In this document: piece by piece, positions 4,057-48,585 of the stretch
How positions within the stretch are numbered: the first letter of the stretch is position 1
Layout of the letters: every line of letters starts with the position of its first letter
Assembly (NCBI GenBank): GCA_040218735.1
Contig: JAVJQW010000046.1
Coordinates: 64,001-128,000, forward strand
DNA length: 64,000 nt
DNA from: Deltaproteobacteria bacterium
GTDB taxonomy: Bacteria; Myxococcota; Kuafuiibacteriia; Kuafuiibacteriales; Kuafuiibacteriaceae
Direction of reading: 5' to 3'
Program-made: the position numbers and the translations under genes
The notes under the pieces: model-generated
What the model saw: the letters and a program-made list of their open reading frames with translations, nothing else
Told to the model about the DNA's origin: nothing
The model's database searches: none

Positions 4057-5007
4057 TCAGGCGAGCTCGATCGCCTTCACCGCCCAGGCGGGTACCCAAA
4101 TATGATCGATGTTCCCGCGGCGCGGGTTCGGCACGACCGTGAGCGCGTCCGCGCCCTCCTGGTAGTCCGGGCTCATCCCGCTCACCTGGCGATCGTTCAC
4201 CAGCTTCACGATCAGTGACGTCCCCGTCGGGTCGGGGCTGTTCGCGCCGCGGCGCTGTCCGAAGAAGATCGCGAGCACGTCGTCGAGCGTGATGTTCGAG
4301 ACCTGCCCGTTCTTCATCTTCATCTGGAGGTGACCCGAGCTCGGGTCGAAGCCTTCCACCTGACCGCGCTGTGTCCCGCCCGCCATCATGTGGACGATGA
4401 CCGGCGTCCCGGTGGCCGTCGGCGTGTCGACGCGCGACGCTGCGCGCGGCTGCGGCGTCCCGGGGCGAGGGGCCGCGCGTGGATGCGGCGTGGCGGCGCG
4501 CGGCGCCGCGACGGGCGGCGGCGGACGCTCGAGGCCGAGCAACACCCGCGCTTCGCGTTCGAGATCGATCGAGTCGCCGGACGGGTTTACGACGTCGCTC
4601 GGGATGACGTCCGCCGTGACCGAGGCCGGCACGAGGTCGTCGGAGAAGTAGTCCTGCATGAACGCCGGCGTACGCGGCGGTGTGTAGCTGCTCCGCGGGA
4701 CCGTCGCGACGTCGCGGACCTTGCCGCGATCCGCGTCGGACATGTCGAGCGCGTCCGTGAGCGCCGAGGCCATCGAGGGCTTGGGCGCCGCCGTCGCGGC
4801 GGGCGCGGACGGTGCGCTCCCGGGGGCGGCGGTCGGGTTGGCGATGCGCTTCGGCGCGGGCTTCGCGCCGTCGATCGCCTCACGAATCGCTTCGTCGAGG
4901 ACCTCCATGCGCGTTCGTTCGTTCACCGGGAGCGCGCGTTTGCGTCGCTCCATCGCCAGCCCCACGAACTCTTGAATCAGCGCCACGGTCGCCCGTGCGT
5001 CAGACAT
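4057..5007 (-). CDS. Hypothetical protein with Pro/Ala-rich linker and C-terminal DUF6982-like tandem domain
   Basis: C-terminal VIVH...G-x-x-x-RG-x-V-x-x-FDP...DDVLAIFF...IVKL-x-x-x-R-x-V-x-G-x-SPDY...NIDHIWV. ATG at 5007 overlaps the end of the upstream gene. Confidence 0.65.
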   Translation of the reverse strand: MSDARATVALIQEFVGLAMERRKRALPVNERTRMEVLDEAIREAIDGAKPAPKRIANPTAAPGSAPSAPAATAAPKPSMASALTDALDMSDADRGKVRDVATVPRSSYTPPRTPAFMQDYFSDDLVPASVTADVIPSDVVNPSGDSIDLEREARVLLGLERPPPPVAAPRAATPHPRAAPRPGTPQPRAASRVDTPTATGTPVIVHMMAGGTQRGQVEGFDPSSGHLQMKMKNGQVSNITLDDVLAIFFGQRRGANSPDPTGTSLIVKLVNDRQVSGMSPDYQEGADALTVVPNPRRGNIDHIWVPAWAVKAIELA

Positions 5008-45367: not shown

Positions 45368-45799
45368 TCACCACTCGCCGACGTTGGGCATCGACGCCCA
45401 CGGCTCTTGCACGGGGCGCGCTTCTCCGCGCTGCAACAGTTCGATCGAGATCAGATCCGGTGAGCGGATGAAAGCCATCCGGCCGTCGCGCGGCGGGCGG
45501 TTGATCGTGACCCCCGCGTCCAGCAGGCGCTGGCACAGCGCGTAGATGTCGTCGACTTCGTACGCGAGGTGACCGAAGTTCCGGCCGACGGTGTACGCCT
45601 CCTCCTGGTCCCAGTTGTAGGTGAGCTCGACGTGGGGGGCGTCGGCGTCCTTGGCGCGGGTCGTGGCGAGGAAGACGAGCGTGAAGCGCCCCTTCTCGGA
45701 GTCGCGGCGTCGCACCTCGTGCATGCCGAGTTTGTTCACGAAGAAGTCGAGCGCGGCGTCCAGGTCGCGGACGCGGATCATCGTGTGGAGGTATCGCAT
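45368..45799 (-). CDS. gloA: Lactoylglutathione lyase (glyoxalase I)
   Basis: [38 protein letters not shown]. Confidence 0.92.
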
Positions 45800-45857
45800 C
45801 GCGGACGAGCGTGCGCACAGGGGACGCCTGAAGGCGAGCGCGCTACAATGAACGTCG

Positions 45858-46181
45858 ATGGAGCCGATCACGCGAGGCCCGCTGACCGACATGAAGCGTC
45901 TGCACGCGAAGCTCGACGTGCACGGGATCGCCGCGGAGATCTTGCGCCCGATCGACTGCAACCTCGGCGCTTGAAACGCGACATTCGTGCTCGCGGTCGC
46001 GAGCCAAGACATCGAAGCCACCCGCCGGCTCCTCGACGACGCGTGGCGTGACTCCCTCGACGCCGAGCACCCCGACGTGGTCGTCGACTTCGACCAGGCC
46101 GAGATGACCTGCCCGGCGTGCCTCACCAAGTTCGCGACGGGCCCGCGCGAGTGTCCGGACTGCGGGCTGTTCCTCGGCTGA
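45858..46181 (+). CDS. Putative selenoprotein (107 aa, UGA at codon 39) with C-terminal Zn ribbon
   Basis: MEPITRG...[19 protein letters not shown]...CPAC...CPDCGLFLG is one continuous frame. TGA at 45972-45974 is followed by a SECIS-like hairpin. TACAAT lies 8 nt before the ATG. Confidence 0.75.
45989..46004 (+). promoter_or_regulatory. Bacterial SECIS element candidate
   Basis: GCTCGC-GGTC-GCGAGC: 6-bp stem with a GGUC loop beginning 20 nt after the UGA, like the E. coli fdhF apical GGUC loop. Confidence 0.7.
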
Positions 46182-46721
46182 TCAGTTCTCGACGAGCGGC
46201 CCCTCGACCTCGACGCGGAACGCATCCTCGGGGATCTCGAGCGCGAGGAGGTTCGACTCGACGCAGGCCTTCGCGTCTTCGCTCACCACGCCGTAGTGGA
46301 CGACGCCGGTGAAGTGATCGATGCCGAGCGTCTGCATGTCCTCGATGACGAACACACCCCTGGAGCGGAGCTCGTACCGCCACAGCTGGGCGAAGTCATA
46401 CGTGGTCTTTTGCGGCGTCGCTGGATTGTTGCGCCAGGGGCGCTCGCCGTAGATCTCCACGAGCGCGTCGCGCGCCTGGTCGGCGAGGGCCTGGCTCGGC
46501 TCGACGAGCAGCACCGCGAGGTGCACCTGATCCCGCATGACGTAGGTGCCGCCGAACCCCGGGACGGTCTCGACGAGCGCCGCGAGCGCGCGTTGGTCTT
46601 CGAAGCCGGGGCCGGTCGGGAACGTCTCGGCCGCCGCCGCGACCGTCGGGCACACGAAGGGCTCCGGGGCACATCCCCAGGCGAACGCGACGAGGGCCAA
46701 CGCGAGCGTCCAGCGCATCAT
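46182..46721 (-). CDS. Hypothetical lipoprotein
   Basis: Lipobox AWGC; fills the gap between convergent genes. Confidence 0.65.
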
Positions 46722-46809
46722 GGACCGTCGTACAACAGACGCCCCCGCATTGGCGACGAAGGGAAGTCGCCCCGTGGCGGGACCTGTTGGACACTCCCGA
46801 AATCGCCCC

Positions 46810-48585
46810 ATGTACGAAGAAGAAGACGAAGAAACCTACGAAGGCTTGAGCTGGTCGCGCCGCACCTTCATGCAGGCGACCGTCGCGGCTTCCGTGCTCG
46901 CCGCGAGCCGCGCCGCGCTCGCGAAGAAGACCGCCGGCACCGCCGCCGCGTACATCGCGGGGCAGCTCGCTCGCCACGGCGCGACGACGCTCTTCGGTGT
47001 CCCCGGCGCGACCTGTGATCCGCTCTTCGAGGCGTGCCACGGCAACCCGAAGATGTCGCTCGCGATCACCAGCAGCGATCTCGAAGCGGGCTACGCGGCC
47101 GACGGCTTCGCACGGATGCGCGGACTCAGCGCGCTGTCGGTGACCTACGGCGTGGGGACGATGAGCCTGATGTCCGTCGTCGCGGGGGCGTACGCCGAGC
47201 GGAGCCCGATCGTCGTCTTCAACGGCGGCCCGCACGGCACCGACCTGAGGCTGCAACGCGACTTCGACACGTACTTCTCACACTCCACGGGGCACGCGAG
47301 CAGCGACCTCGAGATGTTCCGCCGTATCACCGCGTACGCGAAGCGCGCGGAGCGGGCGAAGGACGTCCCGCGGGTCGTTGACGAAGCGATCCGCGTGGCG
47401 CTGCAGCAGCGACGCCCGGTCTACGTCGAGATCCCCAAGAGCCTGTGGACCGCGCGGGTGAGCGCGACGGGCGACACGATCGACGGGCGCGTCGCGGCGA
47501 GCGGGAAGGAGGCACAGGTCGCGGAGCGGATCGTCGACGTCCTCGCGAAGGCGAAGCGCCCCGCGCTGCTCCTGGGGGTCGAGCTCGAACGCTACGGGCT
47601 GCACGCGGAGGCGAAGCGCCTCGTCGAGCACCTCGGCGTCCCGTACGCGACGACGATGCTCGCGAAGACGGTCCTCGCCGAGGGGGCGCCGCTGTTCGCG
47701 GGGGTGTACGTCGGCGGTCGATCCGTCCCGGCGATGCGGAAGTTCCTCGAAGGCGCCGATGCCGTCCTCGCGCTGGGCTGTGTGTTCGGCCGGCAGTACC
47801 GGACCGTCGCGACGAAGTCCTCGAACCTGGTCGCGGTGTCGAACGGACGCGCGCGGTTCGGGCTCGGCAAGAAGGCGAGTGAGACGCCGGTGGCGCTCGA
47901 CGCGTTGATCGATGCGCTCCTCGCGAAACGGTTCAGCAAGAACGCTGCGCACGCGGCGACGAACCCACGTCGCGGTCGTTCGTTCGACGAGCGACGCGCC
48001 TCGCTGTCGAAGCGCGCGGCGGAGGGGCCCCTGACTTACGACGGTCTCCTGAAGACGGTGTCGGATCGGCTGCGCCCGGAGCACGTCGTCCTCACCGACA
48101 CGAGCCTGATGATGTACCCGGCGGGGGATCTCGACGTTCGCGGTCGCGGCGCATTCGTCTGCAACGGCGTGTGGCAGGCGATCGGCTTTTCGGCGGGAGC
48201 GGCGGCCGGCGTGGCGATCGCGGCGCCCGACAAGAAGCCGATCGTGATCTGCGGGGACGGCGGCTTCCAGATGACGGCGCAGGCGTTGTCGACGATCGCG
48301 AAGATGAAGCTCCCGGTCACGGTCATCGTCGTGAACAACGGGCACTACGGCATCGAGCAGTTCCTCCTCGACCGCAACTACTTCGACGCGGGGAAGGGCG
48401 GCATCCCGTACCTCGATCTCAACGACTGGGACTACGTCGGTTTCGCGCGCGCGCTGGGGATCACCAACGCCAAGGCGGTCACCACGACGGAGCAGCTCGC
48501 GGCGGCGCTGTCGGGCGACGGTCCCGCGTTCATCGACGCGAAGATCGCGCGGAGTGATCTCCCCGCGCAGCTGAGGAAGGCCTGA
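46810..48585 (+). CDS. Tat-exported ThDP-dependent enzyme, pyruvate/indolepyruvate decarboxylase family
   Basis: SRRTFM twin-arginine signal with ALA cleavage site. FGVPG, AGYAADGFAR, TYGVG and GDG-x-FQMT...NNGHYGIE. Confidence 0.88.
   Translation: MYEEEDEETYEGLSWSRRTFMQATVAASVLAASRAALAKKTAGTAAAYIAGQLARHGATTLFGVPGATCDPLFEACHGNPKMSLAITSSDLEAGYAADGFARMRGLSALSVTYGVGTMSLMSVVAGAYAERSPIVVFNGGPHGTDLRLQRDFDTYFSHSTGHASSDLEMFRRITAYAKRAERAKDVPRVVDEAIRVALQQRRPVYVEIPKSLWTARVSATGDTIDGRVAASGKEAQVAERIVDVLAKAKRPALLLGVELERYGLHAEAKRLVEHLGVPYATTMLAKTVLAEGAPLFAGVYVGGRSVPAMRKFLEGADAVLALGCVFGRQYRTVATKSSNLVAVSNGRARFGLGKKASETPVALDALIDALLAKRFSKNAAHAATNPRRGRSFDERRASLSKRAAEGPLTYDGLLKTVSDRLRPEHVVLTDTSLMMYPAGDLDVRGRGAFVCNGVWQAIGFSAGAAAGVAIAAPDKKPIVICGDGGFQMTAQALSTIAKMKLPVTVIVVNNGHYGIEQFLLDRNYFDAGKGGIPYLDLNDWDYVGFARALGITNAKAVTTTEQLAAALSGDGPAFIDAKIARSDLPAQLRKA

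Follow-up and report, generated by a model that had tools for sequence, protein, structure and literature searches.

In the deep-Sep paper (PMC12013277), Xiao and Zhang (2025) predicted a 'hypothetical protein DG' in two Desulfosediminicola genomes; in the accessible part of that source, the prediction is accompanied by homologues with TGA and with Cys and by a SECIS element. The DG family is already in print as a prediction. It is represented by the NCBIfam model NF049953, 'zinc ribbon-containing (seleno)protein DG', with a cut-off of 130 bits, and the accessible part of PMC13188914 tabulates it with the motif GUxG. A further described system is DUF3343 (Se_S_carrier, PF11823), for which traffic of selenium or sulfur has been proposed as a hypothesis; according to the accessible text of the same report, DUF3343 genes are located near those of YedF and selenocysteine (Sec) lyase (PMC5322559).

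The DNA analysed here, called the window, is a stretch of 64,000 nucleotides from a bacterium of the phylum Myxococcota. On its forward strand, positions 45858 to 46181 hold a frame of 107 codons, with ATG at 45858, the stop codon TGA at 46179-46181 and a single internal TGA, whereas gene callers give just the last 64 aa, from 45987 (mechanical ORF list). This is the extended frame of the original prediction, and both the reading frame and homology point to a selenoprotein gene encoding 107 aa. The sequence on either side of the internal TGA looks coding, as had been claimed: GC3 is 0.92 over the 38 codons 5' of it and 0.93 over the 68 codons 3' of it. An in-frame TGA stop lies three codons 5' of the ATG, and there is no Cys motif upstream. 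The internal TGA is codon 39 (45972-45974, forward strand), the position of the predicted Sec39, as suggested by TGA in homologues and Cys in the aligned column. Cys34 (45957-45959), noticed from the start as standing five residues ahead of the UGA, begins a C-x4-U loop motif and is missing from some Sec homologues.

Residues 1-68 (45858-46061) are predicted to form a beta-alpha-beta-loop-beta-alpha domain that appears DUF2007/DUF3343-like in an AlphaFold2 model, a fold search and profile-profile comparison. The C-terminal C4 zinc ribbon (46110-46163), with the predicted zinc ligands Cys85, 88, 99 and 102, was rightly recognized in the original prediction: Cys85, 99 and 102 are invariant in 102 aligned proteins, Cys88 is present in at least 90% of them, and zinc-ribbon Pfam models match. 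The hexamer TACAAT, a candidate -10-like element, is indeed located 8 nt 5' of the ATG (45844-45849, forward strand), but a sigma-70 consensus scan near it gave 0 full promoter sites. Comparable hexamers are found near the start in several homologues, as judged by eye. If TACAAT served as the -10 element, the mRNA would be leaderless or nearly leaderless.

The UGA is very likely read as Sec39 by bacterial Sec decoding, an assignment based on comparative sequence evidence. The genome of the window (G000, 96% complete) contains selA, selB, selD and tRNA-Sec, each over the cut-off, so the machinery that the original prediction had asked for is present; its selD (C18:152317-153240, reverse strand) bears an in-frame TGA of its own. 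A crude scan of 348 open-frame TGAs in G000 left 34 with a hairpin, mostly evident noise, and the present gene is among them. Other likely Sec codons of this genome are located at C55:398708 (-), C60:322555 (+), C24:97263 (-), C16:53636 (-), C41:100253 (-) and C33:29701 (+); judged by eye and from motifs, they belong to a formate dehydrogenase, a YeeE/YedE-like protein, three thioredoxin-like proteins and one AhpD-like protein.

Homologues had been expected to carry Cys or a conserved TGA at this site, and this turned out to be the case. Of 96 database proteins, 66 have Cys in the aligned column, 1 (P0023) has Trp, and 28 have no Cys near the site. Among related loci drawn from genomes and metagenomes, 19 distinct sequences, namely that of the window and 18 others, have their TGA in the same loop. 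Protein databases mostly hold fragments: 12 of 14 close matches begin just after the TGA site, as do at least 19 of the 150 representatives listed, and one database protein (P0044) stops at residue 38. Of the 12 distinct genomes that carry the TGA form, 11 have a detected selB gene; this co-occurrence separates weakly, since selB is also present in 23 of the 35 entries that lack this form.

The hairpin GCTCGC-GGTC-GCGAGC at 45989-46004 (forward strand) has a 6-bp stem and a GGUC loop (45995-45998) at a spacing of 20 nt from the UGA. The bSECIS model in Fig. 2 of PMC13188914, as far as that part of the source sets it out, comprises a loop of 3-9 nt, an upper stem of 4-16 bp, G in loop positions 1-2, a distance of 16-37 nt from the UGA and an energy of -7.5 kcal/mol or lower. 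The hairpin agrees with every one of these terms (4-nt loop, 6 bp, 20 nt, and -12.1 kcal/mol for 45975-46010). Its folding energy is no better than that of shuffled sequences in four windows (z of -0.08, -0.03, -1.05 and +0.71), and Rfam gives no family match in the hairpin region. The hairpin stands above chance because it is conserved across homologues, and not through its folding energy. The codons CTC GCG GTC GCG are used in 16 of the 18 sequences that encode Leu-Ala-Val-Ala over the hairpin, as against a background of 30 of 243 such tetrapeptides (12%) in long high-GC3 frames of G000. Both remaining sequences retain the stem, one by a compensatory change of a C-G to a U-A pair and the other with a loop change. 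The sole Cys form of the short branch that is available as DNA (L116) uses other codons and has lost the hairpin. Over 17 distinct rows, the six stem pairs are kept in 97.1% of 102 cells, compared with 24-49% in slid controls, and two of the six pairs are altered on both sides; both the codon and the pair counts overstate independence, since the rows are kin. These data agree with the SECIS element of the original prediction. Overall, the locus is one conserved gene with an in-frame UGA that very likely encodes Sec.

By homology, the gene is a short, one-zinc-ribbon relative of the predicted family DG and not a new family. NF049953 matches residues 3-106 with model positions 61-171 of 172 (E 2.4e-18). 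The score of 66.6 bits is below the cut-off because the extra N-terminal zinc ribbon (positions 1-60) of the DG proteins, which are about 172 aa long, is missing from the window protein with its 107 aa; three other short Sec forms score 67.9-81.4 bits. Given the homology to NF049953 and Sec in the same loop, yet a score under the cut-off, the protein is therefore a DG homologue and not a member by NCBI's test. The original prediction placed it outside the classical selenoprotein families, which holds, but its kin had already been described. BLASTP aligned it with a Sec-bearing, over-cut-off DG member at 27% over 111 columns. In the window's phylum, NF049953 matches were found in 226 of 301 genomes (a tally that takes in the unpublished G195), over the cut-off in 0 of 301, and 176 of 201 genomes in the order of G382 pass it. 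In the ESM Atlas, the best structural look-alike of a Cys homologue (P0003) is DG (TM 0.70). The DG loop has the form CxxxCC. TGA was found in 7 of the 150 DG matches listed, all seven in this loop; five of these loci have Sec in place of the first Cys of the CC pair, and two (L224 and L225) have it in place of the second.

The distribution of Sec and Cys was followed in a quick tree of 149 rows, for which 21 DG Cys rows had been dropped from 170, and in a 59-row subset without the loop and SECIS columns. In both trees, Sec forms occupy three positions: the window's short branch (support 90, with one Cys row within), L172 among the short Cys forms, and the DG Sec forms among the DG Cys forms. 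A single clade of all 23 Sec rows was rejected by the AU test (p-AU 7.7e-10). The tree topology shows several Cys/Sec switches, the direction of which lies beyond these unrooted trees of about 100 columns. L172 (G053:C33, TGA at 2578) is likely to be a separate Cys/Sec switch: its Cys and Sec are direct neighbours (C-U), and the sequence of its hairpin is a different one. The spacing from Cys to Sec among the Sec forms ranges from CU to C-x5-U. It is the Sec position that is the constant one, since some Sec forms (L059, L118, L228 and L229) have no upstream Cys. Directly upstream of one short gene lies a tandem paralogue (L023:4583-4885 on the forward strand, ends approximate; TGA at 4700), which has the same N-terminal domain, a TGA and GGUC hairpin of its own and the motif U-S-C-C, with a basic tail that replaces the zinc ribbon.

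An AlphaFold2 model built from the 102-sequence alignment, with Sec39 modelled as Cys, has pLDDT 91.6 and pTM 0.64. Its order is beta-alpha-beta, a loop of residues 30-42, beta-alpha and zinc ribbon. Cys34 and Sec39 are in the loop, which is the less confident portion of the model. The domain is a small one of the alpha/beta type, and the predicted position of Sec39 is in the connection from strand 2 to strand 3. The best solved matches of the N-terminal domain in a fold search were the EscJ/PrgK ring-building domains (Z 9.3, rmsd 1.3, 56 aligned residues); a function of this kind was rejected, the matches being taken as a shared small fold. RPA1041 (PDB 2hfv), which we take to be a DUF2007 representative, matched with Z 6.7. 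Foldseek gave no match at E 0.001 or better, and a search of solved structures by sequence found only matches at the level of the zinc ribbon (best E 0.0044). PII subunits are four-stranded, ferredoxin-like proteins that form a nucleotide-binding trimer; the modelled domain has three strands, and PII/PstA matches were weak (Foldseek E 0.07 or worse; Z 4.6).

Profile-profile comparison by hhalign, with families rebuilt from the fetched loci (19 sequences for DUF2007 and 28 for DUF3343), gave a probability of 96.2 over 57 columns for DUF2007 and 93.4 over 52 columns for DUF3343, against less than 0.5 with shuffled columns. Thus, of the DUF2007/PII-like fold in the original prediction, the DUF2007-like part is borne out by this probability and by RPA1041, whereas the fold matches for the PII-like part are weak. 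In the hhalign alignment, the invariant Cys of DUF3343 (28 of 28 sequences used) is opposite Sec39. The link to DUF3343 may be one of fold only, because DUF2007 scores higher and the two profiles match each other (87.9). The likeness to DUF2007 (PF09413, putative signal-transducing protein) is likewise at the profile level: 4 of the 102 aligned members match PF09413 at E 0.01 or better, and the window protein itself gives no match and does not reach the gathering score of 25.7 bits. Among the 19 sequences used for DUF2007, no Cys of the loop is conserved, which is a difference from the window protein. PF11823 gave no match to the window protein at E up to 1 (gathering score 25 bits, not reached) and no match over the cut-off in G000. 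DUF3343, a model of 69 positions, has no zinc ribbon, unlike the window protein, and its genes are found near YedF and Sec lyase in the accessible account, whereas the short Sec forms have no such neighbours.

The divergent gene at 45368-45799 (reverse strand) is glyoxalase I-like, as had been noticed (PF00903, E 2e-18; TIGR00068, 111 bits with a cut-off of 120). At the 19 other short-form loci with neighbours listed from crude ORF calls, glyoxalase I was not seen next to the gene; since it does not recur, it gives no functional clue, and a functional link was rejected in favour of a local accident. On the other side, a convergent ORF of 209 aa (46182-46811, reverse strand) shows, by eye, a lipoprotein-like signal and is matched by no Pfam or NCBIfam model. 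Within the same crude ORF calls, no neighbour recurs among the short Sec forms except in close relatives, and no conserved neighbour of selenium or sulfur metabolism was seen beside the short forms; weak neighbour links may be missed because the ORFs were called crudely. In one genome, a short Sec gene is convergent with a selA-selB pair about 24 nt apart (L231:3677-6966, G049:C12). DG proper lies mostly behind hslU, unlike the window gene: in 26 of 40 loci (L188-L190 and L194-L230), which are kin, it directly follows hslV-hslU and is read in the same direction. Where the distance was measured, the first Cys motif lies 38-311 nt past the stop codon of hslU. Long Cys-less relatives, the second copy of G000 included, sit behind mutS. 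This copy (L233; G000:C17:25869-26372, forward strand) is a long member with two zinc ribbons, a mutS-like gene ahead, a loop without Cys and no TGA.

With somewhat less than even probability, we assume from the sequence comparisons that the selenol is the working residue of the protein. Upstream of this function, SelB with Sec-tRNA very probably binds the GGUC loop and inserts Sec39; without selenium the product would end at 38 aa. The four C-terminal Cys would bind zinc, as predicted, and the exposed selenol of the loop would act as the nucleophile, either cycling with a Cys34-Sec39 selenenylsulfide or carrying sulfane sulfur or selenium in the way proposed for DUF3343. The redox or S/Se state of the loop would then be handed to a partner protein, with the zinc ribbon as the docking surface. 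This mechanism is favoured because of the DUF3343 alignment, the repeated Cys/Sec exchange and the Sec forms without a second Cys; it is weakened by the lack of supporting neighbours, by the many Cys-less relatives and by a link to DUF3343 that may be one of fold only.

The same Sec gene might instead encode a metal chaperone or sensor, the loop of which is a soft-metal site where Cys34 and Sec39 bind Cu(I), Hg(II), As(III) or a small cluster. This is a possible but doubtful reading. At least three loop-region Cys are found in 26 of 33 DG Cys forms (crude window), with motifs such as CxxxCC and CCxxxCxC, the Cys-to-Sec spacing varies in a way unlike that of a fixed dithiol, and metal-binding selenoproteins appear in Table 1 of PMC13188914; several Sec forms, however, have no second loop Cys, and no metal-transport or metal-resistance neighbours recur. 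It seems improbable that the family is a protein-interaction module, for example one that regulates the HslVU protease or serves as its adaptor, with a Sec loop that only tunes it to redox stress. The position of DG proper behind hslU, a fold like that of ring-building and DUF2007 domains, and the many homologues that keep the fold without loop Cys would suit such a role, but hslU was not seen to recur beside the short Sec forms, other clades are behind mutS, and the 40 DG loci are kin.

A very remote alternative is that the UGA is not Sec at all, being read as Trp or Cys or serving as a true stop in a split gene, a pseudogene or a sequencing error. It could draw on P0023, a homologue from the short branch that has Trp in place of Sec and is a single Logan sequence known as a protein only, and on one TGA-bearing 3.9 Mb assembly (G304, locus L025) without a match for selB or tRNA-Sec, where 150 of 650 RNA candidates were scored. 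TGA is not reassigned genome-wide, since it terminates this gene and many of its relatives, and the codon, the hairpin and the aligned Cys are kept across many genomes. The original prediction named a sequencing error at the TGA as a way in which it could fail. Contigs from two other studies cover the codon (X2 spans the stretch, X9 covers the codon), and no change at it is among the differences listed, although this comparison is at the contig level only.

In a wider reading, which we regard as rather unlikely, DUF2007 and DUF3343 would form a superfamily in which the loop residue carries sulfane sulfur or selenium, and DG would be the branch of it that bears zinc ribbons. This residue would have changed repeatedly between Cys and Sec, at one or the other of two neighbouring Cys positions, and the SECIS hairpins would have evolved separately. 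If this is true, the short form would use Sec to carry Se/S or to serve as a redox relay, and would offer a natural experiment on why Sec takes the place of Cys. The alignment with DUF3343 offers a first testable function for a family without one. Paired Sec and Cys forms, a length of 107 aa and a SECIS element locked into four codons should make the short form an easy test system for Sec insertion and for the contribution that selenium makes.

In the literature searched, we found no description of the short form, of the second-Cys register or of a link to DUF3343; BSepDB may hold such entries. For that database (PMC13326102), genomes of Myxococcota were scanned for families already known, and the accessible main text does not name DG. 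Searches for papers on selenoproteins in Myxococcota found none, and those for bacterial zinc-ribbon selenoproteins with SECIS returned nothing related. The locus presents neither a new family nor a new decoding mechanism. What it adds is that a family predicted from two sulfate reducers now reaches a short form that is cut in two in protein databases because it falls under the curated cut-off. The window protein and DG have in common the middle domain and the C-terminal CPxC...CPxCGL zinc ribbon, and in both Sec or Cys is in the loop between strands 2 and 3, with a hairpin downstream. The hairpin sequence of the window gene differs from that of DG, and its motif is C-x4-U-N-A (A-U-N-A) instead of the GUxG given in the accessible table, from which the over-cut-off DG members L224, L225, L226, L227 and L230 likewise depart. 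As to register, Sec in the window protein, like that of L224 and L225, aligns with the second Cys of the CC pair in the DG motif CxxxCC, although BLASTP places it one column earlier; in the published type, as far as the accessible source describes it, Sec takes the place of the first Cys of the pair.
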